A stretch of 64,000 nucleotides of DNA from the NCBI GenBank assembly GCA_951406725.2, contig OX597821.1:53258001-53322000 (forward strand), read 5' to 3'. The notes beneath the pieces are model-generated. The model was not told where the DNA came from and ran no database searches. It saw only the letters and a program-made list of their open reading frames with translations. Of the stretch, positions 16,637 through 51,887 are shown piece by piece; the first letter of the stretch is position 1; each line of letters starts with the position of its first letter. A program made the position numbers and the translations under genes. Source of the DNA: Octopus vulgaris. Its lineage: Eukaryota.

Positions 16637-16910
16637 TGCAGCGTGGAAGGTGTTTGTAAGCCATATAAGAAACACACAAAAGCCGTTCGATTCACTTCAA
16701 CATTTAAGTTTGATTTGTCAAAATATTTTCGTCGCTAAAATCCGCGACCTGTTCACTGACAAAAATCCTTGCTGCATTTTTGTCAGTGAACAGGTTGCGG
16801 ATTTTAGCAACGAAAATATTTTGACAAATTAAACATAAGTGTTGATGTGAATCGAACGGCTTTTGTGTGTTTCTTAAATGGCTTACAAACACTTTCCACG
16901 CTGCAATTGT
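16632..16910. repeat. Long palindrome with 135-bp arms and a 9-nt loop; inverted PLE-type terminal repeat
   Basis: 16632-16766 is the near-perfect reverse complement of 16776-16910; loop CCTTGCTGC; the right copy extends to ~16966; (TA)n on both flanks. Confidence 0.95.
16779..16828 (+). ncRNA. Hammerhead-like fold with G3-C8 core swap (mirror copy 16714-16763 on minus)
   Basis: TTTGTCA GTGAACA G GTTGC GGATTTTA GCAAC GAAA ATAT TT TGACAAA: 7-bp stem I, 5-bp stem II, palindromic stem III. Confidence 0.55.
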
Positions 16911-16963
16911 TTTCGTTTCAGCACACGATCTCAGATCAAATCACTTGCTATGCGAGTACATCT

Positions 16964-17014
<51 letters not shown>

Positions 17015-17018
<4 letters not shown>

Positions 17019-17253
17019 GTTGTCAGTGTTTATTGAGCGAAATCAGCTAAAGCTCCATGAGGCTCCGGCAGGGGGTGGTGTACTCTGCTGTACTATTTCA
17101 CAACTTTCTCTCACACTTTCTTCCTGTTTCTGTTGTACCTGTATTTCAAAGGCTCAGTCTTGACACATTCTGTGTCACGCCGCATCTCCTTGAGTATTGC
17201 ATTAAAGGTACACGTGTCTGTGGAGTGCTAATTTCGCAACCGATGGAGTGACA

Positions 17254-17255
<2 letters not shown>
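17015..17255. mobile_element. Interspersed repeat fragment (likely retroposon tail) between TA arrays
   Basis: GC-richer island (AAAGCTCCATGAGGCTCCGGCAGGGG...GTACACGTGTCTGTGGAGTGCT) bounded by (TA)n; resembles a common Octopus repeat by recognition only. Confidence 0.5.
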
Positions 17256-17296
<41 letters not shown>

Positions 17297-20200
17297 AGTG
17301 TGTGTGTTTGTGTGTGTGTCTATGTGTGTGTATGTATGTATATACATATATGAATGTATGTGTGTATTTATATATATAACCACAGAATGTATTTATGTAA
17401 TAGATATACACGTATATGCATATGTTTGTATGTATTAACTGTAGCAGACATGCTCACACTCATCCTTCACAAATGGATCTGTTTTATTTGGCGAGAAATT
17501 ATTTCTTGACCACATTATGTACAAAAAAGAAATTGATATGATATATTTTTGAGGTATCGGAAATTCGTCTTCTATTTTACTGAAGATAATTTGTATTCTA
17601 AAATAAGAGCTTGACTAGTAAAATAGGCAATAGTTTTTATTCTATTTACGATACACTTTATTTGCAGACAGATATATGGAACCATGAGAGGAGGAAAAAG
17701 ATATCGAACTATAAGAATGAATATATGGCTTGCGTCTCTGTAACTATGTCATCAACGAAGATAATGCGTCTTTAATTGCTTCCTAAATATACTGACGTAA
17801 AGTATTTCACTACTCCTCTAGATAATACGTACAGCAGTATTGTATTATCACGAAAATGCAAACGAAACAAAAATTCATGATTACATCCTCGAAAGTAACT
17901 AAAGAAACAGTTTCGTCAAATAGTTTAAAGAAAGCGATAATTTCCTATAATTTGCAGTTGAATGAAAATACTTTAAAGAAAAAGCCATTACATTTATATA
18001 TAGCTCAACTTCTCTTTTTTTTTTATTGTATTAATGTTATTAAATACAATCCCAAACGAATGCAATGCTCAAACACAATGTTGAGTGAATATCGATCCGT
18101 TAAGATGGGCTGTGACTTAGATTCACCACATAGCAATACAACCAACCTTGTATTGATTTAGTTGCGGTGTCAGATTGTTCAGCTTCTTACTATGGAATAA
18201 TCCTATGATCCTGATTTACAGAGTTATGGCAAACAGAGTTAAGAACGAAGATTAAATTTTCCTAGTGAATATCAGAAGGCTCTTCATTCAGTTTGCAGCA
18301 ATGGTAGCAACGCTAATTATGGAAAACCGTTAAATGTATGTGTGTATGTATTTATGTATGTAATACTGAAATTGTTACTACTGTTGTTTAACTCTATTTA
18401 ATAGGTCACTGCCCTGTCATTCCTTATATCAGCAGCTACATTAGTCAATATGTCCTTCCTTATTAAAAACATTTGTGAAAAATATGAGGTATACATATGC
18501 TGAGCGACCACATAGCGGATAATTTTTGGTTCAATATGCAGTTATGTTTAATATTTGAGAAATGACGGTAGACAAGCAAGTACACAAGTTCTAGGCCGTT
18601 CTTCCATTGCATAATTTAATAGAAATCCTTATGGATTGCCGTACTTGTGACGCATCCTACAGTTTCTAACAATGGTAGCAAAGCATTAATTTGTGGGGAC
18701 GAGATTGAACTCCCTCTATGTAACTATCCAACAAAAATATATCCCAACTATCCCCTAATTCACTAGCCTGATACACAAGATAGGAAACAGATCATGGATC
18801 AAAATATGAATATAGTATGGGATGGATGTGGGTAGCATGCTCTTGATCCATTTAAATAACTTAAATAACAACAACAATAATCGTAAACATAATGCCAAAA
18901 TTTTCATCAATGCACATTTGTTTAAGAAATTTCTGCATATCTTCATGAAACTTTATTCAAGTAATTTGATGAATGAAAGAAGAGTTTGAAAAGTATATAG
19001 AAATATTGTTGTCTGAACATATACTTAGATGTGCATTCTTCTACTGATTCATTTACTAGTTCTAGTCATTGGACTCTGGTGTTGCAGGGTTACAATAACG
19101 GCCTAACTTATTCATCTGGTATTAATGTTACCACGCTAATTCCATTCGGTTTCCAAACAGAGTATATCTCATCAATAAACAGGTATTTACTCGGCGCTAC
19201 ACACACGCGCGCGCGCACGTGTGTATTCTTGTGTGTGTGTGATTGTGATTGTTTAATCGATTTGCTCAAAGTTTTCGTCTCAATTATTATACCATACCAG
19301 CGCTAATATACGATCTGCTGAAGGCTCTGTTCTATGTCCTACCAGTAATGTGTATATGTTATTGAAAGAAGTTTTAATACGGGTAAATTTGTTATATATA
19401 GTTAGAAACACTATTTCATTTTGCATATGAAAATATGATAATATTTGTATGAAATGCATTGACATCATTATGTGGGAGGCTATGATATATTTAAAACTTC
19501 CTACTTAGCAAACGTTTATTTCCTGCAGGTGGCAGGTCAGACGAAATAATAGGTGATTAGATTCTCCAACTTGTGTCGAATAAATATGCGATATAATTGT
19601 GCAGGTGTTAATATTAGTTACAAAATGTTTGAATTACGAAGAAGAAACCGTCAAATGTATGAGATACCAGTACGATTTACTCATTAATTTTATAATACGT
19701 ACGTAAAGTTTCATACAGTGTTTCAAACTTGTATTCGAATTAAAGATTCATATCAGTTTAATTATAACAGTTTAATTACAACGCTAAAGTGAAATTATAA
19801 ATAGATTAATTTAAGCCATTTTAGTCTCATAGCTACAATTGTAGATCTTGGATATTATTTACCCCTGAACAAGTCATTGTCAACTAACAGGCCCAATTTG
19901 TGTGATACATACCTATATAAGGCTATTAAACTCATTTTCGGCGGGAAATCAAATTATTGTGGTCATTTAACTGTTTTCCTTTGATTACAATCTTGTAAAA
20001 AATCTGTTTCATTTTCTACCATTTCAATTATTTTCATTAGAAAACTGAGAAAAGTTTAAATAATTTGTTCTCTCTTTGTATTATATTAATATTAAAGGAT
20101 ACAATTTTTGAAAATTAACAGATTTTCGGGCGGAATATACGCAATTGTAATTACAGGCCTATAAATGTAGACATTGGGACAATACAGGGTCGAAAGGTCT

Positions 20201-20789
20201 CAAAATTTTGAATAATTTCTTATATTTCTAATAGGATGAAATATAGTAAATTGTATGAGCCATGAGTTTGTTTGTAGTACCAATAGTTCGGAGAAAGTGT
20301 AACTCATTCATTTGTTTAATAAACTGTTTACTAATGTGTTGCAGTTAGGGAAAATGCAAATACAATGATTTCAAAGAATTATCAAGGTAGGTTAGGCTGT
20401 ATTTCATAAAAGCTTAGCAGTTTTCACTTTCGTTTATTTGATTACGAAAATAGATGACCAGAGAAAATAAAAATTGTATTTTACATGTTACCATATTAAC
20501 CAAATTTTATGCACCACAAGCAATTGTTAAATCAATTATTATTAACCTCCTCTAATATGTGGCATTTGGTGAATAAGGGTCAATTCTCCAGATTTCATTT
20601 CTACAAAATAGTGAGAAGCTCTGTCGAAGTCGTAACACGATTATAGGTAAGTTGTCTACAGCTTGTATTAGTCTTAATGTTTTCATCATCGTTGCCAAAA
20701 ACTCAAGATGATATGAAAACTTTTGGGCATCTAGAATCCAGACAACTGTTAAAAGCTTTTGATTAATATATCTTTGAAGAGACAAAATG

Positions 20790-22848
20790 AATGTGAAAAC
20801 ATTTTATGGATCAAAACCAATCCATCATCGATTCTTGAATGATGCACTTGAAGGAGTAAAATCCGACAACCCATGTTGAACTGATATTTTAACAAAAAAT
20901 TCCCCACTGGTGGTGCTGATAGTGATGTAGAAGAAGATGATTACAATTTGATGGTGCATAATGGTCTTCCACTTAAAGTAGCTTGCGAATAAGAAGTCAC
21001 TGAATACGATGCAAATGATTTCGAAACTTCTGAGTGCGACTCCATTGATAAAGAAACAAGCCTATATTTTAGCAAAACCACAGAAAAGGACATAGTAAAA
21101 AAACCTCAAACAAGATTGCAAAAAAACATCAATTCAGCTTCAAGTGCAAAAAGTTACATTGGATTAGCTTGAGTGGCTAATATGTCCGACTGGCTAATTT
21201 GTTTGAGTGGCTAATATGTCTGATTGGTTTAATACGTCTGAGTTGGTAGTTCGTATGATGGTATTTGATGAGCTTAAAGACCATTTGGTCAAGTGGGATT
21301 GCTGTTACTGCCTGACTACAGCTGTCGTACAGATGAGTATGAAAAGTCCCCTAATGAAAATTGCAATCCTTTTTTGCAGAAACAATGAACTGTAAGAGGT
21401 TCCAAGAAATAATGGCAAATGTGAAACATTTATATGATAATTTAAACAAATGATTTCAGATTTTTGGCGTAGTGCATGAGAACTCAAGTGCTGGGGAAAG
21501 TATTTTACCATAACTTGGAAGACACTCGTTTAAGCGGTGGAGGCGCGCAGTTTAGTGGTTAGAGTGGTTTCAATTCCGGGGCGGATGATGCGTAGTGCTC
21601 TTGAGCAAAACTATTTGCTTCGCCTTGCTCCAGTCCACTCAGCTGACAAAAATGAATATTTCTGCGACAGACCGGTGTCCTGCCTATTGTGTGGGGAATA
21701 TATAGGCAACAGAAAACGGAAAATAACCTCATCATTCTATATGAGTCCAGAAGGAAATTTGTTTATTTTTATTCCTGTTAGCAGTTGATTTATAGGAAAG
21801 CCTGTCTCTTTGGACACAAGTCTTCAGTCATAACAAGAAGTACTAGTTTGTTCTATCATGTTTCAATTTATCCGGGTGCTGAGAAAAATGACAGAATGCG
21901 ACTCTTGCTTCTGGTATTGTAAAAGCAACTGGAGCAATATGCATTTAGGTTTTGTTAACTTAGTTCATATGAATTGATGCTTGATGTGAAGAAGCTCGAA
22001 TTTAGAGCTAACGGGATTATTCTTACGACTCGCGTTGCTGGTTGTCCATTGCAAGACGCCATAGGACGAAGAATCCCAGTATCAGTTGACTACTACTGTT
22101 CTACTTCGACTGAAATTATTCAGTGGAATGCCAATTCAGTTGTTACCTATGACAGAACCACAGTAGTTTTTTCCATTGATGGAGGTAAAACGGTGGGTAA
22201 CTAAAACAGTTCGCGTAAATGCGTCACAGCTTGCTGTTATGAAGGTCAAAAACTAGAATATGGGCGGCGTAATCATCGTAGACAAAGCCCTATCTGACTA
22301 TTATACAAGAATACAAGGCAAGAGGTGATACTGGAATCTGCTTACAAATAGAATAAACCTTGGTATTGTGTAACACTGGCGATTTTGCAGCTTAGTTTAT
22401 GGATCAACATCGATTAAAAGAATATTCCTTGCAACTCTGTCAATATCATGGTCAGACGTTCCATCACTTCTATTCCACCAGTTTCTAGACTTGCCCCTAT
22501 ATGCAAAGTCCCTGATGGAATGTGTTGTTTGAAAAAGAGTTGTCGAAACATGGGTATAATTTTCATCTAAATAAATAAATAAACCATGCACGAGCAAATA
22601 TGTATAAGAGTATTTCAGCAGCACCAGGAACCAAAACCACGAAAAACTGTCCATTTGTTGTAAATATATTTTATACGCATGACCCCGCTCAATCCCAAAA
22701 TCCACAAATGTATAACTTTCGAGCAAACAAAGATCCTTTAATTTAATGATGCTGAAATTTCACCAATATTTGAGTTTGATATAAATAAACTTGGGTTCAT
22801 AATTTTATAGGTATTGACAGATTCATTCGGCCCTTATGCTAATAAGGG
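20790..22848 (+). mobile_element. Decayed piggyBac (PGBD3-like) transposon, interrupted by a SINE
   Basis: Fragments in order: acidic ADSDVEEDD..GLPLKVACE, TMNCKRFQEI, VKHLYDNLNK, GKPV/FGHK, ELMLDVKKLEFRANG..RVAGCPL..WNANSVVT, NMGGVIIVDKALSDYYTRIQGKR*YW, Cys-rich tail; ends ...AAGGG|TTAA at 22848. Left terminal repeat not found. Confidence 0.8.
21536..21720 (+). mobile_element. Truncated tRNA-derived SINE (family of 12363-12673)
   Basis: GGAGGCGCGCAGTTTAGTGGTTAGAG...CTTGAGCAAAAC...TTGCTCCAGTCCACTCAGCTG. Confidence 0.7.
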
Positions 22849-24182
22849 TTAATTTTGTTTTCTTTGTTGGTAGCCAATTCAAATCTCATACGTTCCTGAA
22901 TAAGTTACACTTTCACCACCAATATCATTAAAGCACAGCCTGTGCTTTAATAATCTAAAATTCATTCTGAAATTTGAGGCACTACTAATCAAATCAGTAC
23001 GGAAACACATCATTCATATCTGAGACAGCTACCAGAATATATATCATTGATAGTATATATATATATATATATGTGTGTATATATATGTATATGTGTGTGT
23101 ATGTGTGAATGTATGTCCGTACAAATAATAAAAGTCGTTTATTAAACTAACTTCTGAATATACAAGACAATTGTCAAAACCGATAAACTAACATCTGCTT
23201 ATGTTATGAGCATATTGTAGACGTGAATATTAATCTTAACAAATTCATAAATATATCATATTTGTTAAGATTGTGGACGTATCTCTGTCCCTGGGTGTAT
23301 AATAAATCAAGTATAATATTATGTTCACAATATTACGTCATTTAAGAGGAATCAGAATTGTAAGAAAGCGAAATTTCGTCTTGATTAACTTCAATTTCTT
23401 GAAAAGAAACGCTGTAAACAATAACACTAAACTGTTCCACAAGATACTACTAAAATACTAGACAATGGCTCTTCAGAAACGTTTGGTAAATAACAGAGTA
23501 TAAACAACATTAAAGAAAATATCGGTATAGGAATGTGCAAGACTGCGACATGTTCCTCAGTGTTTATTATGAAGGTGAAATCAGCATTAAACAACAGAAA
23601 ACAACAATAGGAAATAGAGTGGATATTATAGTAATTCCAGTCTGTGCAAAATATTTATTTAGCTTTATCTCATCTATTTCTCCACGTATGGAGAAATGGG
23701 AGACCTCATAAATGAGTAGTCCTAACACCGAGATATCAAAGAAACACAATATAAAACTTCAACTGTTGTTTCATTTTCACTATTGTGGTTCACTCTTTTG
23801 TATACACGCAACGTGTGAGCAACGTTTTTTTCTAAATAGCAACAAACTTATACAACGCAATACTGATATTTTTGTAGCATTAGGGTCCCTCTAACAAAGG
23901 AATCAAATATCTACATATTGCTTCGAATGACCACTGAAAACTCGATCGTGTCCACAAATAATACAGAATGCATTAAGTATTTATTCCATCTACAGCCTTA
24001 ATTTTATTTTAAAATGTCTTTTCTTATTTTCTGAACTCACACGCACGCATACACATTTTTCTGCATAGGTTGGTGTATGAGTGTGTTTATTGTGTATATA
24101 TGCACATTTCGAAGTACACACATGTACGTTCATTCTCTTACCTTTCACATTTCTTCTTTATTAAGTACATTATAGATGGTAG

Positions 24183-24216
24183 ACTTACCTGCAATAGAAA
24201 GAAGAAGACGTAAGTA
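24183..24216 (-). other. Candidate recursive (zero-length exon) splice site
   Basis: Minus strand: TACTTAC (branch-like) G TCTTCTTCTTTCT ATTGCAG|GTAAGT. Confidence 0.45.
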
Positions 24217-24655
24217 TTTATTATCGACAGTGGACGTGATTTTTCGAAAACAAAAATTGCTAAAATGCATTAAAATTAGAATATTAGTGAATATTTCAAT
24301 ATATTAACGAGATCATTGAAATAAATTCGTAAGACCGTGAATATTTAACAGAACACAGATTGTAATTAACCTACACTATATCACCATATTCACTTCATTG
24401 GAAATTTGAAGCATCATTATATGTTGGTAATTTCATGCGCAAAGATACATATACTGGAGATGCACATACGCTCAGACATACGCTTCAGATAAAAATAAAA
24501 TTATGAGTATGTAACATAATCACAACTGTGAATTAATTTTAATTCCTTGGCTTTATCACAGGTGTAGCATCTAATGTTTAACGTACACACACACATACAC
24601 ACACACGTATATATATATATATATATATATATATGCATACAAACACAATGCATAC

Positions 24656-24693
<38 letters not shown>

Positions 24694-25449
24694 AATAAAA
24701 CATATGCAAAATAAGTGGAAAAATAATACTTGTATATGAAAAACAGAGTAATTTACTATTCATTATAGTCTGTGACAATCTTCACAAACTGTTACTCCGT
24801 GTTTTACGCCACCGTTTGTCAGACTTGTAATAATACTGAGTACTAACTTATGAGTGTATATATAATATAATATAATATAATATAATATAATATAATACAG
24901 TATTTACATTTCAACGAATAAACATTTCAAAATGATTGGATAAATGATTTTCAAAGTATATAACGAAAAAGAAAAATATCGTTATAGCAATGTGCAAGAC
25001 TAGGACGTGCTTCTTAAAATTATCCCACGTCGACGGCATAACCCATGCTGCAATCCATCAAGCAGTCCCCAGGGAAACGACTGAACATAGAGATGGTGAA
25101 CTCCGGTCCTCCCCTGAAAAAAATTTGTCCTGAAATCGTTCCAAAATCAGCATCGCAGAATGCACACTCATATTCAGAAGTGAGAATTGCAAAAGTTAAA
25201 AGGAATATAAAAATGTGCTAAAGTTGTTTTTAAAATTGAAATTAGATTTGAAAAATAAAACGTCAATGCTTTAGATGGGAAGAAGCTAAGTGAAGAAACA
25301 GAAATAAAGCAAAAGAATGGAGAAAGAACAAGATTTTTTTCTGGTTTTAATAAATACTATATATATGTGTGTGTGTGTGTGTGTGTTTGTGTGTGTATAC
25401 TATTTATTTCTTTAACACCCACAGGAGCGTACACTCACATACACACTTA

Positions 25450-25975
25450 TCTCTTATATAAAATCCGTTCTGTCTGTCTGTGTGTGTGTCTTCTCGGATC
25501 TCGGGCATCCTCCATCCGATTGCGCTGTAGACGGTATCAGGACATGTATAAGTCTTGAAAAATTACAAAAATCGATTCCAGGTGAGAATAAGATCCATAA
25601 AGCTGTTTTTCTCCTGCTTTTCTTCCGTCAACCTGTACATAACTGCACCTTCCATTTTTTATTGTTTTTATACTGCTTATAGGCACATTTCTTTCCTGCC
25701 AAGCTTACTGTTTAAACTATGTTTGTTTTTCTCCCAGTCAACAGCCTTATCATTACTCGTACTTTAGACTCCTCGGTTGCACAGTTGTGTGAATAAAATC
25801 GTTTTTCTTCGGAATAGAAAAAAAAAATCTTCTTTTGCTGGTGTCTCAAATTTAGCTTACATCAATGTTTCTAAAAGGGGAGGCCTATGGGACGGTCGGA
25901 CAAGATGTTTTGAGAAAATTTAGTTTAAACGTTCGACAACTCAGCACCGTCCATTGACGGGGGGCGTTTTGCTCG
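25450..25975 (+). mobile_element. Non-autonomous Helitron
   Basis: A|TCTCTTATATAAAAT 5' end; 3' hairpin CCGTC-CATT-GACGG (25947-25960), then CTCG|T (CTAG variant); inserted between A and T with no TSD. Confidence 0.7.
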
Positions 25976-27653
25976 TAATCAATAATAAAAGACACTTGTA
26001 TTTAATATATTTTGTACTCATACTTATGTGCATGGATATATATTCAATAATATAGAGACATGTGAATATAATATGCATATTAGTATTATTAAAAATATAT
26101 TATAATATTGTTTAATGAATGGGGATCAATATCACATTATCTTTAAAAAATAAACTAATATTTTACATAATGTCGTACGTTACTTCTATATCATTACTTA
26201 TGAAAATCGTAATACAAGATCAGATCTTCCCATCATAATTAGCTTTTCACGTTATAAACCTCTGTTATTTTCACTGATATTTTAATCTGCCTTTCTCGAA
26301 ATGGTATGTAAAGATTTAGAAATCGGTGGCGTTTTTTCAACTATCTGCTACAAATATACCTCCCTTTTCCTGGTGTTTGTCTTCGAAATGGAAATATCGC
26401 TTCTATATTTCAGTGAAATCTTAAATAGTAGTATGAAAAGATTTGCAAAGGTAAATACGATTATGATTGAAAATCTTACCTTGCTTTCATTATGAGTGAA
26501 ATTTGTTATAGTAGCATTAGGTTAGGATGACGGGGGCGTAGAATCTATTACCATAGGAATGACATAGGCTGAATATTAAAAATTTTATGGTGTAGCTTTA
26601 CTTTGGATGCGCTTACTACATATATGGGAGAATTAGCATTTCTGCTTCCATGGCAACAGCAAAGTATCCTGCGCGCAATGTTATTGTTGTGTTAATGCGA
26701 ACTAGAAAAGGTTGGATGACATAAATATACATATAAAAGATGACACAAATTTAATAGCTCACATTTGGCCGTTGGCGTGGGATTATGTTTTAGACTGAAT
26801 ATGTATGTGAGTGTGTATGTGTGTGTAGACACAAGAGTTCGGAAGGAAGCACTATTTTAGTATCAGAACCTTGCTGAATGGGCACCATATGCATGCAATG
26901 TCTACCATTTCTCAGGTGAGAAAATAATAGCAGCAGGTACTTCAGTAAATGACATTGTTAATAGCCTATTGGCACCATCAATTTACCCTCGATCCCAGAA
27001 ATTCTATTGTTACTCAATTCCGTTAGCAGTTTTGCCGAAATACACTCAGATACTCTCAACAGTCTTCAGTAGTATCTACAACGCCTTGTTGATACTGAAA
27101 CTCACAATTTATATACTTTGAATATAACCTAAAATATTTGTTGTCTTTTCGCCACGAGTTGAATAAAATTTTATTGAATAACGTTTTGCTATTTACATAT
27201 TTCATTTTCGCTGTTAGGACGAAAGTAGTGTAGGTATGAACAGGTTTATACCACCGACGTGCAGGACTGACTCACTTTTCACCACGCGGTATACTGACTA
27301 ATGCATTGTTTATTTAAGTGGTCCAACTAGCAGAGTATAAACTATCACTTAATTGCAAGTTATATTAAATAATTATTTAAGGGCTCCTTGATCACTTATA
27401 GGCTGCAGAGAGATAAACTACATTTTGCACCAAGTAATTCGTTTCTGATCATTATTATGAAACTACTATACCTAAACGGACATACATAATGCTTACATAT
27501 CGAATAAGAGGTTACCTAAAGTTGAAGTGATTCTAATTAAAGCACATGAAACGGTTCACTTGCATTGACCTTCGGATATTTCTTATAAACTAACAAATTG
27601 AATTATATTGCAATAAGATGAAACTATACCCATAACGCCTTGTGAACTGTGTG

Positions 27654-29960: not shown

Positions 29961-30942
29961 AAAGAAGTGCTGGATTACATGTACATATTCAGAGCATGTT
30001 CTTCCAAAAGGCCTCTACATAATTCCTGTCAACCGGATTTCACTCCTGAGTATAAGCTAAAAGCAAGTTGATCAGGATTGTGAGCTTTGGTAACTTACCT
30101 TAGACTATGTAGTTTCGACGAAAACAGTTTTTTGTCGTAAAGCCAGTGTTGCAACGATAGCTTGCAAAGCATAAAGTGTTTATTTTCAGTGTTAAACTAA
30201 CTGTACATAAAATATTCATTCTTATATTATTTCTTCTAACGTATCTTTCTTTTTCTTTTCTAGGCTAAATTTGATAGAATTTTACAGCTACAATTTCTCT
30301 TTCAGTTAATCAAAGAAACAAGAATTTAAATGAACCATATCGTTAACTTTATGTGATCATATTCATTTAACCATGCTTACTGGATAAAAATATATTCTCG
30401 GTTATTTCTATTACGAGGCATTTATGATGCAATTTAAAAGAAATTTAAAATATATTATGGCGAAGATATTTTAGATATTCAAATATATGAGGATATATAT
30501 GTAATTCATTCTATCTATAAACAAGTATGTACTGAACAGATTTGCAAGCACATTATGATTCTACTTGTTAAAAACAATTTTCTTTTACAGCATCGTAGCA
30601 TAAATATAATTAAAGATGTAAGTGCGTGAAAGACAAGTTTTCGAATATAACATACATTAGAAGTATCCTGGATACTCCACGTTTATCTTGAAAACTATGT
30701 AATGGACGCGAAAATTTGAAGACAACTATGAGATAATTTTTGAAAAATTGTATTTTATTTCAAACATCTGATTTTGCGAAAGGAGTAAATGCTCACTGGG
30801 GTAGGAGACAAGGAGAGAACATCGTATCACGCTATAGACATCCTTATACATTTTCGTGTATTATTTTTCGATTTAGGTAAAGAAGTATATAAATAATCTT
30901 AACTAAGGACCGAAATCAAAGACAACTTATCTTCTGCTACTG

Positions 30943-37088: not shown

Positions 37089-37470
37089 ATCTCTTCTTTT
37101 TCTTCTTCTTCGATGCCTGCTTTTTCAACTACTTCTACTGCTTAAACAATCAGGAACAAGAATTCGTACCGAACATTAGAACTACTACTACCTGCTTTTC
37201 ACTACCTAGAACTCACACGAGTTAAAAATAGGCAGAGACACAGAAAAAAACGAAAATGTCCCTTACAGTTGAAAACTATGAAATATTCTAATAAAACCTT
37301 TAACTTAATTTCTCCACCATTTAATTGTTTTTCATGCTTGAAAAAGTCGCGAAGACTGAAACCGGTACTAGAATCTTCTTCATGATGAAATTATTTTAGC
37401 ATTTTCTACCTTATACATATCAACTCGTGTGTTCCTTTCCACCCTTATATGCTGTAATTCATTATTCACG
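37088..37470 (+). mobile_element. PLE-type terminal repeat fragment carrying a U3-A8 hammerhead-like core (37338-37367)
   Basis: TTGAAAA AGTC GCGAA GACT GAAA CCGG TA; island embedded between microsatellites. Confidence 0.55.
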
Positions 37471-39850: not shown

Positions 39851-41384
39851 CCTCATCGCTTATATTTCATCGTGAAAATTCCACCTTCAAATTAATATTA
39901 TCCTGCATATATAATGCTCAATTAAAAACATAAAAATAAACAAAACCAAAACTAAACAAATCTACTTATTTCTTTGAATGAAATGCAAAACCAACTACAG
40001 AACATTTATATTCAAAACTGCACACGGAATTTTAAAAAAAATTGCAAAGAATAGGCAACAATTCTATTGAAGGCAGACTTGCTACATTTTATGCAATTCG
40101 CTGTAGTATTTTCAGGCCTAGGTAAACTCTTATCGCACATATTAAATTTACAGTAGCTTCGCGGTCACGCTATCGTACATTTAGGCAATGAAATACTTTA
40201 TCTAATGTGTCCGTTAGTTTGCTCTTTCTGTGTGATTTAGCTGCTATTACTACAAATCAAGATACTCCTTAGAGGATGATTTGTTAGCTCCTGTGCAACG
40301 AATATAGAGCGTTGAAATTAAGAAGATTCCATTACGTCATATGTTATTGCCTTAAGCTGATATGTAACTACTTCGAATATAAAACTTCAAAGCTTTTAGA
40401 AGTTTGCAGTTTTCCGTGAAACATCAAATGCATGAATTTTCCGAGTCATGATTCTCAGTTAATGACTTTTCGTCAAATAATTAGCTAATCAGATTCAAGT
40501 CCATAACAAGATCTGAAACATGAACCAAATTCTAGATTTAACAAGAGAAATTTTAGAATCAAAGAAATATTCTAGTTGCATAGAATTTCAAATTGAAATA
40601 TTTGATCTTTAGTTTTCAAGTTTTTGTTAAATATTCTAAATTAAAATTAGGAGAGCAAATAAAAAAACTCAAAGCTGTATTTAAAATAATGTAAAACGTT
40701 TATAAATGACAATCTTTATTGTATGAATGTGGGGGAAACAGTTATGGAATCGCAGAGTTGCCGTGAATGTATGAAGGGTAAGGGAGAAGAGATTGAAAAC
40801 ATACATCTGTATTCTGTCACTTGCAAATACATATAAAATGAAAACACTTAACATGTATCGGTAGGGTTTATAAAAAGGAAATTCTATAGGGACAAACTCT
40901 CCAAACACAGCAGAGATGGGTATGCCGTAAATATTTAGGGATAGAAAATTCAAGTGGTAACTCGCTTTTACACCTGTTCCGCACGAGCGATTATTCGACT
41001 CAGTAATCTGGAATATAGATAACTTCTTCATGCCACGAATGAATCACGGAAAACACAATATAGTCATGGATACGACCTTGCATTCAGTTGTAGCAAAATT
41101 GAAAAAAGCGTGGTAGGATTACGTAGAGCAGGGTGTAAAGCTCACAGCAATAAACAGTTGACATACAATAATTCCACGAAATAGTTTAAAAGCTTGCAGT
41201 GATATATTTCTCGACCATTATATAAAAGAAATATCTTGCTTCCATATAATTTTCAAAACATAATGAGAGATAGACCAAGTGAAAATATTTGAGATGCGTG
41301 GATATATATTTTTCACTATTAACGTACGATTTCCTTGGTAACATCAAGTATAGAAATGTTAGCTACATGATCAAATTCTTTTCT

Positions 41385-41520
41385 AATCTAGGCACAAGAT
41401 CCGAAATTTTGGGGGAGGGGGCCAGTCGACGAGATCGACCACAGCACCAACACCGAAAGGATGAAAGACAAGGTCGACGTCGGCGGAATTTGAACTCATA
41501 ATGTAAAGACAGACGACATA
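41385..41520 (-). mobile_element. SINE fragment
   Basis: CCGAAAGGATGAAAGACAAGGTCGACGTCGGCGGAATTTGAACTCA matches the 58008-58242 family. Confidence 0.75.
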
Positions 41521-41725
41521 TATAGCTATCTCTCAGTTTTTGTGACAGTTAAATTTTTTTTCTGTGAGACAATTTCTTCAATTGAATTCTGGAAGCCATG
41601 ATTGCCTGTCTAGTTTATGCATTTTGTGCTGTGTGTTAGGCATTTATGGTTCTATTTTATGCTCCAGGAATTCAACAGAAACTTTTGCTTGTCAGATTTA
41701 ATACATTTCTGTGTCACATCTGGGT

Positions 41726-42003
41726 CCAAATTTCGAAAAACAAATTTATGAATCCAAATTTGTGTAACCAAATTTCGAAATACAAATTTCGGAATGCAAA
41801 TTAATGAAACCAAATTTAGGAAACCAAATTTCGGAATCCAAATTTGGGAATACAAATTTATGAAACCAAACTTATGAAACCAAATTTACAAATTCAAATT
41901 CATGAATCGAACGAAACCACATTTATGAATCCAATGAAACCAAATTTACGAATACAAATTTAGGAAATCAAGTTTCTAAAATCAAATTTATGAAACCAAA
42001 TTT
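41726..42003. repeat. 14-bp minisatellite, consensus CCAAATTTATGAAA/T, about 20 units
   Basis: Successive units CCAAATTTGTGTAA, CCAAATTTCGAAAT, ACAAATTTCGGAAT, CCAAATTTAGGAAA, ACAAATTTATGAAA etc. Confidence 0.9.
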
Positions 42004-42285
42004 TTAAACTCTATATATTTTACTTTTGTAAATATTTTAACTGTACATCTAGTGTAGCATTAATTTATTTCTTCCTACACATTTGTTTGTATGTAGGTTG
42101 TTTATGTATGCGGATACTTAATTCATAGTAATATTTTAAAAAGCTTCATGTGTTGTTGTTTTGGGTTTGCCTCATTATGGACACCAGATCGTAACAATAT
42201 ACATATATGCATACATATGTATTTATAAATATACATACATATACATACAATCATCCATCATACTTTCCACATTACTTATACAGTC

Positions 42286-42325
<40 letters not shown>

Positions 42326-43157
42326 GTGTGTGTGTGTGTGTAGATTAAAGTATACCGTCAACACAGAGAGGAAGAGAGAAATCAGTGAGGTGTAAAAGCG
42401 AGGGAAGTCTCTAATGGAGGATATTGTTGTATTCCAACTTGTCAAGACTGAGGGAAGCATCAGAGCAAGATAGAAATGCGTCAGGCAGAGGGAATAAGGA
42501 ATACAGTTATAGGTAATATTTGATTGCAGCTTCAAATGAGAACGTTCGATGGTAATTAATGGTGAGGAGTAGTGGAAATCATCAAAAGCTGGCCAGATTT
42601 ATCAAAACTGGGAGGGAGAGGAGTAGTGATAGTGATAAAGATTTTGTTGAATATAAAGAAAATGTCAAGCTAAAGGGAGTCTGACAAAAGTGGGAGTGAG
42701 GGGGATATTTAGGAATCAGCTGATTGTAGTGGTACTAAAATTAGATTCGTAATGTTAAATATACAATATAAAATACACAAAATAAAATTTTAAAATTTGT
42801 GGTGCTAGAAAAAGATGTATCATTATTGGGAACCGAAGGATGAAAATAAAAATTTAAAACGATAGAGGAAAAATAAATCAAAGTTAAATATAATTAAATA
42901 AAAATAAACAGATTAGTGACATATATTCATTAAGTTTAGTTTTACTGAACTTACAGGGCCCAAGAATGAAGAAAACACATTATTAATGGACATTAGGAAC
43001 TAGATATACGAAATAAATTAGTGAAGAGAGCTAGAAAGATTTATAGCATAAATTTTATTAATGCGTATATAGTTCCAAACCATGAAGGCAGAAGCCTAGT
43101 GGTGTTCTATAAATTATGAGGGAGGATTGGAGGTAATTATCTTTATATTTGTTTTAA

Positions 43158-43892
43158 GGGCTAATGCAGTTTCTCACCTCTCCTTGAAAAATGCATTATT
43201 TCGGAAAAAATTTTCGGGTTCCTACATTTTAATCCTCCTTAAAATTCTGAATTTTTTCGAAACTTTTTTTCTATGTTTTACATGACGGAGATACCGAATA
43301 TGCAAAAAAACACACGTTTTCAAAATTTTAAATTCACTAAGCATATAGATATGTGTATAAAGAGATAGATATGAATGTCGTCCCGGGTCTAAAAACAACA
43401 GTAACGCCGTCTTCTATAGGACTGCCACATTTAGTTGACAAATGTATTTTATGAATAAACGGACAGGGATAAATTGATAGATAAATAAATAAATGGATGA
43501 AAAATTTCAAAATTTAAAATTGGGGTGGGGTGAAATTTGAGCCCCCATATTAAACTTTATAACATTAATTATTAAAAATTAATGTTTGTTTCTCATAAAA
43601 TGGTGCATATTCAATTTACATTAAATTATTATTTACGATTATTTAAGGTAAACACAAGTAAAACGCAAATACTTTTCAATTTAATGTTTTTGTGTGAATT
43701 TAATTTCGATTAGCATATTTTTGTCGATTCGCTACGATCTCTTTAAACAAAATAAAAAATTTTAATTGGGGTTAGGGGGTGAAATACCTTTTTTTTGCCT
43801 ATTCGTAATCACCGACATTTAAAACGGAGGAATCCGAAAAGAATTTGAAAACAATGCATTTTTCAAGGAGAGGTGCGAAACTGCATTAGCCC
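43158..43892. mobile_element. MITE / non-autonomous DNA transposon with ~43-bp terminal inverted repeats
   Basis: Left GGGCTAATGCAGTTTCTCACCTCTCCTTGAAAAATGCATT; right AATGCATTTTTCAAGGAGAGGTGCGAAACTGCATTAGCCC (1 mismatch in 40); no ORF inside. Confidence 0.9.
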
Positions 43893-44680
43893 CGAATTTT
43901 AATCACAATACTCTAGGAAACGTATTTGCTAATGCTTATATAATGCAAAGTTTTGAGAGCTCCTCTAGGTCATAACAATGGACTTCACCAGTGCTGTGTT
44001 GCAAGAAAAATTAAATGAATTTACAGTGCACAACAATTAAATATTATTTTAAATATGTACCTGTATGAAGAACAAAATACTTTGTGTTTGATGAACGCTA
44101 TAGTTGTATAGATTGTAAAAACACTTTGAACGAATATGAATAGTTACTTATGATAGGATGAGGCTTCATGCCTGTCCGGTGCGGTTACAAATTTTGAGTT
44201 GCAATGTATTTCTGATGGAAAATCTAAATTTATGAAACGAAAAATTCAAATCTCATTACGATGGTAGATTAGCTAAATCAGTTGCAAAAATTGTCAATTT
44301 CTTCCTCATTAGACAGGAAATTAGGAAATTTTATCTAGAGATCAGTTCAGATATATTACTTTAAGTGACATAAGTTGAAGGACATCCGATTAAATGACAC
44401 TTGTGTCGCAAACTTGATAAAAAATTAGTCGGAATATAATTAGACTTCCTATAAAAAAAAACACACACTAATGATGGTCATTATTAGCTGAAAATAACTT
44501 ATTCCCATATATTCAGATTTATGATTTATGACTGTAAAGTGAAATTAGAGACGGAAAACTTGGTTTGTATAAATCCATTATTCTATACACAAAATTAGAA
44601 AATGCTTTTTCAAATAATTACGAAATTACTATGTTCATATCCAATGATATAATATTTAACACGTATATCTTAAGCCATCT

Positions 44681-44750
<70 letters not shown>

Positions 44751-44751
<1 letters not shown>

Positions 44752-45440
44752 GTAGTAACAGGAAAGAGGAATTTCAGTTATCCCCACGTGGTGAGTTGTA
44801 ATGTATATAAGAAATTAAAAAAGGAAAATACGCACACTTACATAGTTTAATATAATTTTTAATATATCGACCGGTTTCGCTATCTCTATTCATGATATGT
44901 TTTACTTATTTGAATACATATTTTTTCTTAAGAAAAAAAATTTTGTCCATGCTGTGTGTGATGAAATTCACGAGTGAATATTTTCACAAGTAAATAAAGG
45001 GAGGTAATTGTTTGTCGTTATTATTTTTATTGTTGTGGGTAAAGGAGATAACTGTTGAGCTTTCGGTAATTGTAGGGCAATATATATATGTGTACAGACA
45101 GAGAGAAGTTTCAACAACCTTGTTTAGTGAGGGGGTTTATATACAGTGATGTAATCGTGAATTGAAATATGTAAAAATATAAAAGTTGGTTATGCGTGCA
45201 TATTAAGACGTGTTTTGTATTTTTCAATGAAACAAGTTTTTTATTTAAACGTTCTAGTCGAGGGATTGTGTTTTTGCACTGGTAGAAAGGAAAGACTCTG
45301 AAATTTGGTTTGATCTTATCTGCACATTTTTTGTATATGTTCACTGAGAGGAATTTGTCTGTATTGCGCAATACAGACACATTAAAAATCATATTAAAAC
45401 TATGTGTGTGCAAAACACGAAGACAGGTGGTGTACAAAAC
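44751..45440 (-). mobile_element. 3' end of a Penelope-like element: GIY-YIG C-terminus plus 3' UTR/terminal repeat
   Basis: KCADKIKPNFRVFPFYQCKNTIPRLERLNK then frameshifted ETCFIEKYKTRLN (RxxxE..FI..Y.P.LN ending); hammerhead-like motif downstream on the same strand. Confidence 0.8.
44864..44898 (-). ncRNA. Minimal type-I hammerhead-like fold with A3-U8 core variant
   Basis: Minus: ATATC ATGAATA G AGATAG C GAAA CCGG TC GATAT. Confidence 0.55.
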
Positions 45441-45570
45441 AAACAGATGTATTAGTAGAACGCTCAGGAATAGAAAAAGTCTTTACGTTCCGAGCCTACG
45501 CTCTTCTACAGAAAGGGACACAGATAAAACAAGGAGAGAAAAAAGGAGAGAAAAAAGGAGAGAAAAAATG

Positions 45571-45612
<42 letters not shown>

Positions 45613-46452
45613 GGTAGAGAGAAGTGTAATTAAACACATACATATACTTATGCGGGGCACTTTCAGAAGGTATATGACTTTAATTTTGCGGCCAAAATTA
45701 ATGCTCTGTGGCCAGCATTTTTAGGCATGGCATAAGAATGAGACTGTCTCATAATACATGTATAAATTGATTTAGGCAAACATACTTATGAAATGGAAAG
45801 ATTTTGAAATATACTGATAAAATACTACATATATATATATATATATATATTATATCAATAATGTAGAGTTTGAGATATTTAGCAGCAAAACAGAAGTAAT
45901 AACCAAATAATATTAGACTATAGCGTGCATAAGGGTGGAGCAGCTATTCTTCAAGCTTGCCATGTGCAGGCCCCTGTAATCCACCATTGAACATATAAAT
46001 TCTTTAAAAATATATTTTTTGTCGGGGGCAATATCTGAAATCTTGGTAGGTTACGTGAAAAAAGCGAAAAAAATGCAACCAATCTTTTATTACCACCCTC
46101 TGCACTATCATATGATTGATAGTAACAATTATTTCATACATTACCCATTTCATACATTACACATAATGCAAACAATTTTTGTCGGAGGTGATCATTCAAT
46201 TATATCCATCATGCTACTTGACTACTAATCTAATGTTATCGACCTGAAATTCATAGGACAAGGTGGGCGTTGGAGTGAATTGACCGTAGGACGTAAAGAC
46301 TCGGGAGAATGCCGCTATTTATGTTGTTGAAAGTGCTACCGACTCTAGCAGTTCACCGCGATAACAACAATAACAACATGATCAACACCACTACCAATAC
46401 CACCACCACCAATAATAGTAATGATGAGGATGATGATAATAATAATAATAAT

Positions 46453-46519
<67 letters not shown>

Positions 46520-46522
<3 letters not shown>

Positions 46523-47075
46523 GCCCTGATGCAGTACCAGACAGTGGTTTCCATGGCTTCTGATCTTAACTGATTGGAAGTGTTATCATGTACATTGTTT
46601 TGTCTTGGTATAAAAGATGGGCTATAGCAAATATACTGCTCAATACCAGAGATGTGCTTGTCAGTTGTTTGACCATAACCAGTTGAGCATGTCTCTTAGT
46701 GGCTGACGATACGTGCATCTCTGATCACGAGCAGAAGTAGTGGGGGAGCATCATAGCCATGTGTTGAGAGGAAGTCTTTGGAGTTTGAATAATTCACCTC
46801 TGAAAACATGGCTCTTTCGTTCAACGTCCTTAAACAACCATTATTCAGGGACCTTTTTGAGCCGAATGGGTTACTCGACCAGAAGATAATTCTAACTGGG
46901 CCCCACCTGCAAGTTCATGTGCTGATTATCTCGATATAAGATCATCATGTCGTGCACACATGGTTGTGATGCATGCGCCTAGTGTACCCTTATCAGACGG
47001 GTAGTCATGATGGGTATGCTGGGCTTTGTATATTTTACCCCAATATCACCGTAGTGGCATGCACTGCTCTCTCAC

Positions 47076-47078
<3 letters not shown>
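46520..47078. mobile_element. ~560-bp interspersed repeat, copy 1, within an (AAT)n array
   Basis: Collinear with 47177-47707 (ATGCCCTGATGCAGTACCAG...GGCATGCACTGCTCTCTCACT); flanked by (AAT)n on both sides. Confidence 0.85.
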
Positions 47079-47151
<73 letters not shown>

Positions 47152-47176
47152 GAAGAAGAAGAAGAAGAAGAAGAAG

Positions 47177-47707
47177 GAATGCACTGATGCAGTACCAGGC
47201 AGTGGATTTTATGGCTTCTGATCTTAACTGATTGGAAGCGTTATCATGTATATGGTTTTGCCTTAGTACAAAAGATGTGCAACTGCAAATATTCTACTCA
47301 GTACCACAGATTAATCAGTTGAACATGTCCCTTGGTGGCTGGCGATACGTGCTTCACAGATTACGAGCAGAGGTAGTGGGAGTGCATCATAGCCATGTGT
47401 TGAGAGGAACCCTTTGTGGTTTGGCTAATTCACCTTTGAAATGATGGATGTTTCGTTCAACATCCTTAACATTTTCTCAGGGACCTTATGAGCGGGAAGT
47501 GCTACTCAACCTGAAGAAAATTCTAACTGGACCCCACCTGCAAGTTCATGCTCTGTCTATCTTGAGATATCACTATGTCACGCACATATGGTTGTGGTGC
47601 ATGTGCCTGGTGTACCCTTATTAGACCGGTAGTCATGATGGGTATACTGGGCTTTGTATATTTTACCCCAGTGTCACCGTAGTGGCATGCACTGCTATCT
47701 CACTCAA
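47177..47707. mobile_element. Same repeat, copy 2 (diverged), between (AAT)n(AAG)n and (AGT)n
   Basis: ATGCACTGATGCAGTACCAGGCAGTGG...GGCATGCACTGCTATCTCACTC. Confidence 0.85.
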
Positions 47708-47757
<50 letters not shown>

Positions 47758-47769
47758 ATAAATACATGA

Positions 47770-48660
47770 AGCACAGAAGTGACCAATCATCAGAATGAGA
47801 TAAATTCATAATGTGTGTTGAAGCTAGAGACAAGCAGAAAAATATTTAAGAATGCCTGGAAATGAAAGAGGAATGAAAATGAAAATAGAGTACAACTAGC
47901 AAACAACATTAAGTGACATCGCATGGAGGCACTGCAAAGTTCTCGAGACTTGAAAAGAAACTACTACCTTTGTTCACAGCCAGTTCATTAATGGCAAAAC
48001 CAGCACAAATGCATTCGTAAATAATAAGAACAAGAACAACAGCAGAAACAGGACAAACAACAGCAATATCAATAAGGATAATAATGACTGCGAGCTGGTT
48101 AAAGATAAAATTCACCTTCCTGCATGAAAAGTATGGTCATGCTAACGATATTTTGCTGCGCACCACAAGATGAAAGCTATCTTTCAGCATCTACTAGAAA
48201 CAGATCGAAATTTCAAATGTAAAGTAATTTCAGAAAAGTATGTGTCCTGCGAAGAAGTAATCCATTATATTTTCTCTGGTTGCTCACTGTTAACCGAAAC
48301 AGAAAGTGAAAGTCGCAATATGGATGAGAATCAAATGGACAGTGTATCACTATTAACGAAAACTCATAGAAAATGTGTAATAGAAATACGCATCAAGAAA
48401 TATATATCTGTGAATAACGGATTGGCAACGCTCTGGGAGATGTCAGCGAAGATTAAGGCAATTCATCGAGATATTATTATGAAAGACTAGCGAGAACAAG
48501 AAATGTTCCCTAATCATTGTTTCAATTTACAGGGATGAAAATGTATCATGAAATGAAACATATACGATCCAACTATAAACGTTCTGGAAACAGAGTTGAT
48601 CAGAGTCTATCAAGTGTAAGAGAAACAATTCGTATCCTGGAAATGAGATATCCTGGAAGG
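47770..48660 (+). mobile_element. R4/Dong-type LINE relic (zinc knuckle and endonuclease remnant)
   Basis: ORF 48170-48490: CEEVIHYIFSGCSLL (E-T-I-x-H-I-x-S-G-C remnant) and IHRDIIMKD (RPDI remnant). Confidence 0.5.
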
Positions 48661-48680
48661 AGATAGACAGAAAGATGCAT

Positions 48681-48715
<35 letters not shown>

Positions 48716-49222
48716 TACATACATACACACACGTACATAGAAAGACTGATGATTGAAACATGAGAGTAACAAAGAGTCAAAGGTTTTCATATATACACAA
48801 CGGATCGTCAAAAGACGCACAAATTTACAAAGTACAAGAAAGTTACAATGCTCAATCCCTCCTGCATGAAATCGAACAAAGAGATAAACTCAATTATGAA
48901 GTGAAAGCAGAAATCGATAAAGAAACTAGAGAACGATGACGAGGACAATAACAATAGTCATATTAATAAAAATGTTTCTTGTATTTATGTATGAATATAT
49001 ACATGTGTATATACGATCTTTTAGATTCCGTCAACCACATCTTCCTGCAAGGTTTGCCATGGTGAGGCTAGAGAAGAAAACGTTTTTCTAAGCTGCCACT
49101 TCTTGAAACTGAATCTGAAATCCTCTCGGGAAGCAAACTTCTTATCGCACAGCCACGCTTACGCTTGCATGCCACGGCCACATGTGCGTGTGAGGAGGAT
49201 TTGTACGCATATATGTATGTAA

Positions 49223-49257
<35 letters not shown>

Positions 49258-50529
49258 TGTGCACGTGTATATGTGTGTAAATGCATGGATTATGAAAGCG
49301 AGACAGTGAATGTGGTAAGTAAGGAAATATGAAACATCAAAGACACTTTAAACCTTGTCAGTATATTCTATAATATTTAGATTCGCAATTTATTTTCAAA
49401 TGTTATGGAGCGTGGGTGTATATATGTCTGTAGGTATATATGTCTGCATGTATTTGTTTGGGTATAAATCCAAATGCAGCACACTATTGTTTGAACTATT
49501 GCTGCTTGCATATATTACATAAGAGCAACGGACACGAACGATTGTTGATTATATTTCAATGCATTTGCAGAATAACGAAACATCTAATGAAGGAATGTTT
49601 TTCTTTTTCTTATACTTTTAATGTTTTTTTTTTTTTACGTTTCCTGTTAAATTTTTAAAAATGTAGGCTAATTACACATACGGAACGGCAAATTGACTTT
49701 TTTCTTAGAATTTCATTTAAACGAATTGTAATGTTTATTAAGAGAAAAAAAAAAAACAAAGCAAAAAAAGCAAAAAAAAAAAAAACAGTAAATAGAATTA
49801 TATACATCTGCATATCTAAATAGTGAAATTTTTGCCAAGTAATGATTGCTGCTCCATATTTTACCGTTAATAATTAGTTTCCAAAGCAAATTTTTAATTA
49901 AAACAAAACAATGCACCTTCCTTCACAAGAAACAGATTAATGATTTTAGTACATGATATTGAAATGTAAATCAATGACAGCTTCTATGCATTAAAGGGTA
50001 TTACATATATATATATAATGCTTTTAAGTGTATTATATATGTATATATATATAATATAAATAATCTATCAATATATGCGTATGTACATACATTTGTGTAC
50101 ATACCTACATAAACATGTATATTTACATGCTTATATAGGTACAGGACATAAACAATAACGTTGAACACAATGAGAAACGAAAGCAAAAACAGAAACATAG
50201 AAACAAACTTTTTCGAGCAACGAAAAGAACAGAGAAACGAGACATGAAACATAAAGAATATTCCCCTTCTATAATTGTCCCTGTTTCAACTACACCACGT
50301 TTTTAAGGGAGGGACAAGACGTTGTTTTCGTTGAAACAGTCCTTCCCGCAAAGCAAACTTATATAAAATTTGGGATTTTTTGCGGAGGGTGAAAGTGGTA
50401 ACAGTACAGTTAGAACAAAACAAAAAAAAAAAAAAAGGGTGAGGGATGTTACGTCAAGACGAGAGAAAAATTATTATGAACGTTTAGGAAGACGAGCTTA
50501 TGAAAGGGACAGTATAAGCACGTTTAGTC

Positions 50530-50614
<85 letters not shown>

Positions 50615-51397
50615 ATGAAAAATTGTATAAACAAACTACCTAACTGGACGTAGAAACAAACGGGAGACAAACAGAAGGTCTGTAATTCTTCATCAATTAT
50701 CGACCAATTGGTAATATTCAGTTTAGCATATTTAACGATAAGTCTGAATGCTTCCCAATTGGCGGTGCCCGCAAAAAATGTTTGATTGCGGAGAATTAGG
50801 GTCAAGAGCAAACAAAACAAGCAAGACAATACAGAGTGTGATTTAGTACGGTGGACGAGAACGAACAGGCGAACGAAATACGACCTTGGGGCGTGGGGCA
50901 AGGAGCCGAGAATAGTAGGTGGTCACGTTTTGACCAGTCAGCATGAATAGATCCCGCCGTGTTCTGAACAGAAATAACAATAATAATATAACAACCAGTT
51001 AATGATGGGAATTATAAAATATCTTTAACATATGAATAAAAACAAATTACAGAAGACTCAAAAATGATCGAAACCAACTGAGTTTGCTCACTCATAAAAC
51101 CATAACATGTAAGCCTCAAGCTAATTGGTTAAAATGATTGCGAGATCACTGCCAGTAATATCGATTCACCAGACAAACTATGATGCTTAAGCTGCATACT
51201 GATTAGTCAAAGCCATATTCGAGAAATTCAGCTTATCGGAGCGTTTTGAAATGTATAAATGTAGAGAGTCAGTCATTTTACTACAGTTGTCAACAACTCA
51301 GCTCGACTTTTATTCAATACCCTTTGAAATCTAATGGTCACTACGAAAGTATGAAAGCACTAATTGAAGTTTATGAACATTACTAAATATTTTGGAT

Positions 51398-51431
<34 letters not shown>

Positions 51432-51515
51432 ATAAGATCGTTATTTAAATATCGAACTTATCAAGTGGCCAGCATGGGAATAAAAACCTTCCAAGGTAAT
51501 AATTATTATTAAAAT

Positions 51516-51887
51516 TATAATTTAGGGTATCTAAGAGATACCACCACGCTGAAAGTAGCTGCCAAAACTTGACTCTAGAGAAACATCAAATGTTCATACA
51601 GCACCAGAAGAGAAGACAAATAGACAAAATAAACTACCAATAAAAATTACTTGATAATTCCAGATCCCAGATTTCAGACCCTGCATAAGAAATGCTTTGC
51701 CTCATCAGCGGAATATACGCAGTACATAAATACAAATATATATACATATATATATACAATATACGAATACTTTCATATACGAACGTATACATACATATAT
51801 GCACACGACCAGTTTAATGTGGTTTTAGAGTCGAGGTTTGCCTGCTATTTCCAGCGTGGAGGTATCTCTCAGATACCCTAAATTATA
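51516..51887. mobile_element. Element with ~75-bp diverged inverted repeats enclosing a hammerhead (PLE-type inverted terminal repeat)
   Basis: TATAATTTAGGGTATCTAAGAGATACCACCACGCTG... (51516-51592) vs ...CAGCGTGGAGGTATCTCTCAGATACCCTAAATTATA (51811-51887). Confidence 0.8.
51657..51714 (-). ncRNA. Type-I hammerhead ribozyme candidate with canonical core
   Basis: Minus: AUUCCG CUGAUGA GGC-AAA-GCAU-UUCUU-AUGC-AGG-GUC U GAAA UC-UGG-GA UC^UGGAAU; 6-bp stem I, AUC cleavage triplet. Confidence 0.7.

Follow-up and report, generated by a model that had tools for sequence, protein, structure and literature searches.

Hammerhead-like motifs with all four Watson–Crick forms of the 3–8 pair in octopus repeat families

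The 3–8 pair of the hammerhead-like motifs described here occurs in four Watson–Crick forms, each fixed in its own repeat family. Positions 3 and 8 pair in the active conformation of the hammerhead; single changes at either position kill its activity, and double changes partly restore it. With good confidence, we read these motifs from their sequences as type I hammerhead folds with a 3–8 identity fixed per family, three of the families being the 3′ ends of Penelope-like elements (PLEs), and as motifs that selection likely maintained as self-cleaving ribozymes that would work as dimers.

Four hammerhead motifs in one genomic window

The window, meaning the whole stretch of DNA that was analysed, is a contig stretch of 64,000 nt (G000:C8:53258001-53322000) from a genome of 2.8 Gb. 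An initial annotation of the window had named four cores with a type I layout in four repeat islands, and all four were found in their places. Downstream of each core come GAAA, a stem III segment that is palindromic or nearly so, and UH. Stem I closes in A, C and D and is open in B, as had been described. The residues U4 G5 A6, A9, G12 A13 A14 A15.1, U16.1 and H17 are present in all four motifs and in their families, including the U4, G5, A6, A9 and GAAA that had been called invariant; these core positions were also required by the descriptors used in later searches.

Island A (16632..16966, no strand assigned) consists of two inverted copies of a PLE 3′ end inserted in (TA)n, giving a foldback of ~280 bp with a one-sided tail of ~55 bp. 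Motif A+ (16779..16828, plus strand; GUGAACA, G3 at 16786 and C8 at 16791) has a stem I of 7 bp, a stem II of 5 bp and the stem III palindrome AAUAUU, with one extra G (G9.1) between A9 and stem II and with U17 (16821 in A+), so that the predicted cut falls at 16821/16822. Its inverted twin, motif A− (16714..16763, minus strand; G3 at 16756), is likewise G3-C8. Island B (37090..37430, approximate bounds, plus strand) is a 5′-truncated 3′ end of an old Neptune-like PLE. Its motif (37338..37367, plus strand; UUGAAAA, U3-A8) has a stem II of 4 bp, the palindrome ACCGGU and A17; in this copy an 11-nt deletion takes out the 5′ strand of stem I, which is intact in most of 30 aligned copies and weak in the B subfamily.

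Island C (44740..45400, minus strand) is also a 5′-truncated 3′ end of a Neptune-like PLE, in which a remnant of the GIY-YIG domain survives at 45378-45202 (37% identity, E 3e-5). Motif C (44864..44898, minus strand; AUGAAUA, A3 at 44893 and U8 at 44888) has a stem I of 5 bp, the palindrome ACCGGU and C17 at 44869, and one change in the window copy breaks the second pair of stem II, leaving 1 bp compared with 2 bp in the family. Island D (51430..51900, minus strand) is a non-coding unit of ~530 bp with an inverted piece at its 5′ side here. Its motif (51657..51714, minus strand; CUGAUGA, C3 at 51708) is the canonical C3-G8 form, with a stem I of 6 bp, a stem III of 4 bp with a 1-nt loop, C17 and an extra base before GAAA.

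A descriptor that left positions 3 and 8 free (stem I at least 5 bp, stem II at least 2, stem III at least 3) matched the window three times, at A+, A− and D, all with a Watson–Crick 3–8 pair, compared with 0.04 matches per shuffle in 100 local dinucleotide shuffles of the window. An equal match rate in shuffled sequence, which had been named in advance as fatal to the claim, did not occur. Motifs B and C fail this descriptor because of their copy-specific damage. A metagenome pattern scan, whose chance matches were used purely as a null, gave a stem I of at least 4 bp in 4 of 118 matches versus 13 of 30 own-genome G3-C8 copies. An Rfam scan of the window returned no hammerhead family among the best 150 of 296 matches at E≤10, almost all of these 150 being microsatellite-driven microRNA models, and a hammerhead scan of the window at tighter thresholds, which were too tight, gave no match. 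Two loose hammerhead-like matches at 30068 (+) and 30075 (−), overlapping around a TGATCA palindrome, have non-Watson–Crick 3–8 positions and are probably chance or decayed.

Each 3–8 identity is the norm of its family

For each island, DNA searches yielded 1,778-2,517 first-look candidates; scoring was applied to 40 of these, and 30 loci were retained. The retained loci are the copies most like those of the window and lean towards the window state. In clusters built from all loci, the pair is G-C in 56 of 58 copies of family A, U-A in 39 of 41 copies of the B lineage, A-U in 31 of 34 copies of the C lineage and C-G in 24 of 26 copies of family D. An exact 31-mer spanning G3 and C8 of family A occurs in 852 copies (control 0). 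Each 3–8 identity is therefore a family norm and not decay; a canonical C3-G8 norm with the variants as decayed copies, another outcome that the initial annotation had set against itself, did not occur.

The contigs of four runs, which bear the labels of four organisms, show no variant at 5% or above in the family A core while loop II and the flanks vary; as family A is young, this constancy is weak evidence. At L151:6736-6787, seven of nine enriched differences in run X10 (possibly RNA) are A>G, at 5-26% of depth and below 0.2% in the other three runs, which could stem from A-to-I editing of transcripts of the foldback or from a difference between species.

Positions 3 and 8 covary across subfamilies

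Searches of the genome with a pattern ending in GAAACCGGUH and position 8 free gave 10,890 matches with U3 (control 197) and 3,698 with A, C or G at position 3 (control 1,290), and G3 with a wider gap gave 518 (control 335). Among the first 100 U3 matches, counted by eye, position 8 is A in 96 and G in 4. When the descriptor with free positions 3 and 8 was applied to 286 loci, which were enriched by the preceding searches and include 40 (L247-L286) picked with their 3–8 state known, 176 of 190 distinct matches were Watson–Crick. Among the loci sampled, 24 subfamilies have at least two copies; two of them, with fixed C-U and G-G, lack stem I and were dropped. The pair is Watson–Crick in 21 of the remaining 22 (U-A 8, G-C 6, C-G 4, A-U 3), compared with a permutation mean of 6.3, a comparison that, like the Fisher values, overstates the support because the subfamilies are related and the copies not independent. 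The lone exception is a one-to-one tie inside a U-A family. Position 7, by comparison, varies freely among the 22 (A 12, U 6, C 4), and the control pair 3–7 is Watson–Crick in 7 of them. The covariation of positions 3 and 8 claimed from the four window motifs thus extends to the subfamilies. As a variable position 7 does not pair with U4, a DNA mini-hairpin was rejected as the cause of the 3–8 match. Two multi-copy families (L160, L170-L172 and L182; L191, L200 and L206) match the loose core plus GAAACCGGUC, with fixed C-U and G-G mismatches and no stem I in that register.

Motifs with short and with long stem II were placed in two separate alignments, a joint MAFFT alignment having been discarded as misaligned. 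In alignment A2, positions 3 and 8 are paired in 20 of 21 distinct rows, comprising three Watson–Crick types and one U-G, and this pairing beats that of every stem I column and falls to 29-52% when the positions are slid; in alignment A3 they are paired in 17 of 19 rows. Two-sided changes occur at all seven pairs of stem I in both alignments, and compensatory change at the lineage level supports stems I and II alike. Position 17 is never G in the 22 subfamilies, UH being required by the descriptors. Competition between positions 3 and 17 has been reported (PMC3884650), and the absence of C17 from all six G3-C8 subfamilies and of U17 from all three A3-U8 subfamilies fits it; A17, which would compete for U3, is present in four of the eight U3-A8 subfamilies and does not fit it.

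Repeated swaps within lineages

Patterns in which positions 3 and 8 were each free between two states recovered both forms of a pair within single lineages. For the A-U/G-C lineage there were 182 matches (control 0); counted by eye, the first 100 comprise 77 A-U, 21 G-C, 2 A-C and no G-U. The other pattern, for a tandem family whose unit is 358 bp, matched 272 times (control 0), and the first 100 of these, also by eye, comprise 79 U-A, 21 C-G and no mismatch. This family (L267, L268, L273 and L274, the first of these at G000:C1:20.001-20.0065 Mb) is retrozyme-like, with one type I motif in each unit of ~358 bp, in C3-G8 and U3-A8 forms.

An endonuclease tree of 50 rows was built after removal of L166, a probable chimera, and of rows with short coverage; family A could not be aligned to it. 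An A3-U8 row lies in a subclade (97/92) nested inside a G3-C8 clade (100/99), a second A3-U8 group stands apart, though its support is weaker, and the U3-A8 groups lie on other branches. The tree shows seven label changes, some of which are single decayed copies. The proteins of families A and C share 26% identity over 128 aa, and by this measure the G3-C8 of family A arose in a PLE lineage far from the others. From these relationships we infer at least four independent double substitutions at the 3–8 pair, with about 4-6 independent swaps behind the 22 subfamily rows.

Three of the families are 3′ ends of Penelope-like elements

Several sequence features identify A, B and C as 3′ ends of Penelope-like retroelements. 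In B and C, the longer copies have a reverse transcriptase (RT) motif together with a GIY-YIG domain upstream, in same-strand orientation, and six of seven proteins scanned have Pfam RVT_1 and GIY-YIG matches. The GIY-YIG domain ends ~130-810 nt upstream of the motif in clusters 0-3 and ~1.9 kb upstream in cluster 4. Family A copies with a longer 5′ part contain a 530-aa RT/GIY-YIG frame that ends ~1.1 kb upstream of the motif (parent frame at L151:3979-5568), and the best named homologue of this protein is a hypothetical protein of Octopus vulgaris (52%). In addition, the elements show the PLE traits of 5′ truncation, an inverted 5′ copy, a one-sided tail and (TA)n targets, and the stem III palindromes of A, B and C are unstable and suited to dimers. 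By eye, the spacing of linker and GIY-YIG motifs makes B and C look Neptune-like and A Nematis-like when set against the supplement of PMC8557442. At island A, the junction of the inverted 3′ ends differs between insertions and the tail is on one side; a variable inverted junction with a one-sided tail is described as a PLE signature (PMC8557442, PMC11167929). A MITE or DNA foldback was rejected for this island on the grounds of its varying junctions, its one-sided tail and the RT/GIY-YIG present in longer copies.

The initial annotation had assigned all four motifs to PLEs, and this holds for A, B and C, which in longer copies lie downstream of a GIY-YIG/RT gene. For D, no same-strand open reading frame was found in its 30 loci, nor in the four orientable ones of six further loci (one of which repeats L097). 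Family D, which forms partial tandems of the ~530-bp unit, may be non-autonomous.

Other traces of mobile elements were seen during this work. The window holds a broken RT/GIY-YIG remnant at 10559-11042 (−), ~40% identical to the family A protein and with no hammerhead near it in the window scans, and a broken remnant at 6589-7484 (+) with a Neptune-like RT and linker. Elsewhere, L152:427-2865 is an almost intact Neptune-like PLE, with a single stop between its frames, from a young U3-A8 family, although this copy itself has G8, and L153:5240-5956 (−) holds a 239-aa open frame that by eye resembles a Tc1-type transposase.

Function and alternative explanations

The 3–8 pair exists in the active fold alone, and its repeated restoration is therefore best read as the result of selection for self-cleavage, probably in dimers. 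In the mechanism that we propose, two motifs in tandem or in a paired transcript would pair through the palindromic stem III, the 3–8 pair would form in the active conformation, and each core would cut after the UH of its partner, possibly with help from the element's own protein. Cleavage in such a dimer would be in trans, so a copy with a mismatched core could still be cut by an intact partner and the intermediate could persist, letting a lineage cross from one Watson–Crick pair to another. Selection for cleavage in the founders of the families is the simplest reading. PLE motifs with a palindromic stem III are indeed thought to act as dimers (PMC4209133; PMC6765202), and in a PLE hammerhead the C3G/G8C double mutant gave partial rescue while the single mutants were dead (PMC11167929).

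The copies in the window itself are probably inert fossils of such elements, because A is locked in a hairpin and the stems of B and C are damaged. On read-through, island A is predicted to form a hairpin of 279 nt (−214.7 kcal/mol), which would sequester the motif. Free-energy folding of the motifs recovered stems I and II for A alone, with G3 paired to U17, and recovered no hammerhead fold for B, C or D.

An origin of the variant cores by chance matching in AT-rich DNA, or by decay of CUGAnGA in individual copies, has next to no probability left. Loose patterns do match by chance, as the controls for the non-U3 pattern and the wider-gap G3 pattern show (1290 vs 3698; 335 vs 518), but the variants are the norm of their families and sit at a fixed place 3′ of PLE genes, and the window matches exceed those in shuffles; we regard this explanation as refuted by the family alignments and the shuffles. 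A founder effect, in which a few ancestors with complementary positions 3 and 8 were amplified and the pair itself was unselected, is very unlikely. It draws on the small number of independent events, given that the seven label changes of the tree include single decayed copies, and on the fact that two swaps consist of double transitions, for which a G-U wobble could be the intermediate. However, each swap takes a double change that re-establishes the pair, with the rest of the core constant and N7 drifting, swaps arose in no fewer than two PLE clades and in a tandem family, and both multi-copy clusters with fixed mismatches (C-U, G-G) are without stem I.

A stronger but still improbable alternative is that hammerhead-derived motifs keep a compact fold and the 3–8 pair as a binding or assembly site for the element's protein or for RNA dimerisation, without useful cutting. 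PLE minimal hammerheads cut poorly in vitro, even as dimers (PMC4209133), and in an Anolis PLE catalytic mutants insert unimpaired in vitro and no RNA ends were reported at the cut site (PMC11167929). The weak folds seen here point the same way, with a stem II of 2 bp in the C lineage and a stem I of 2-3 bp plus a mismatch in the B lineage. Against this, the 3–8 pair belongs to the active conformation, position 17 is never G, albeit under descriptors that demanded UH, and the missing C17 and U17 combinations match 3–17 competition (PMC3884650). We retain selection for self-cleavage as the preferred reading.

Whether PLE hammerheads need to cut is debated, given their low activity in vitro and the dispensability of cleavage in one reconstituted system, and one paper holds that they may only parasitise the elements. 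On this question, a tertiary pair of the active fold whose pairing returns with each change at the level of lineages provides evidence from sequence. The broader claim that this genome holds hundreds to thousands of catalytically active natural G3-C8 and A3-U8 hammerheads, undescribed before and with full 3–8 covariation and repeated in-lineage swaps, is one that we advance tentatively, with slightly less belief than doubt. If true, it would be evolutionary evidence for selection on self-cleavage in PLEs, and it would mean that a large share of animal hammerheads escapes censuses based on CUGAnGA. Searches that demand C3 and G8 give too low a count in any case, as the excess of U3 cores ending in GAAACCGGUH alone (10,890 vs 197) indicates. 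The swapped lineages also offer matched natural ribozyme pairs on the same stems, A-U or G-C in one and U-A or C-G in the other.

Comparison with known hammerheads

The motifs most resemble the minimal, short-stem-III type I hammerheads of metazoan PLEs (Cervera and De la Pena 2014, PMC4209133), with which they share the terminal-repeat layout, the palindromic stem III, an extra base after A9, G10.1-C11.1 in most motifs, a common U17, and the occurrence of solo motifs and opposite-strand pairs. The minimal PLE motifs are described there without the loop I–loop II tertiary contact of fast hammerheads. U3-A8 families are reported in the same work for Schistosoma, with ~1,300 matches, and in Saccoglossus, and natural U3-A8 is also known outside PLEs (PMC3088659). 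The 56 representatives in Fig. S3 of PMC4209133 are all C3-G8 or U3-A8, whereas here G3-C8 and A3-U8 are also found, fixed in high-copy families, with four states and in-lineage swaps in one genome and with a stem II down to 2 bp. Of the diversified, non-canonical repertoire that the initial annotation had proposed, the family-fixed variants of A, B and C stand, and CUGAnGA searches would indeed miss them; U3-A8, however, was already catalogued, including in PLEs (PMC3088659, PMC4209133). Natural core variants in the survey of Perreault et al. 2011 (PMC3088659) show the same 3/8 covariation, reported in the sections covered for C3-G8 to U3-A8 only, and tolerate a 2-bp stem II and a 10.1–11.1 mismatch, as here.

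The portions of the literature covered describe no natural G3-C8 or A3-U8 family and mention G3-C8 as an engineered form only, and those on octopus or cephalopod PLE ribozymes contain nothing on core variants; natural forms of either kind may be listed in Lunse et al. 2017, Przybilski and Hammann 2007, Seehafer et al. 2011 or Arkhipova et al. 2017, or in the supplements to these papers. The hammerhead cores in File S2 of PMC8557442 are all C3-G8, and a motif search of the Naiad and Chlamys sequences in that supplement, a narrow test, gave no variant hammerhead. By eye, the 4-bp stem III, 1-nt loop and extra base before GAA of motif D resemble the Hydra-clade PLE hammerheads of the same file.

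Family D and the 358-bp family also recall the non-LTR retrozymes (PMC7229834; bioRxiv 10.64898/2026.07.22.740005), which are described as non-coding repeats with type I motifs. The D unit, at ~530 bp, is longer than the 150-450 bp given for them. The 358-bp family has, by its spacing, the retrozyme trait of non-coding tandem units that each carry a type I motif, and differs from the retrozymes described in having both C3-G8 and U3-A8 forms. Finally, the G3-C8 pair of family A is the one engineered as C3G/G8C (Frangione et al. 2024, PMC11167929; Kalweit et al. 2013, PMC3884650), which was partly active in a PLE hammerhead; those were laboratory mutants, whereas the G3-C8 pair found here is natural and fixed in its families.
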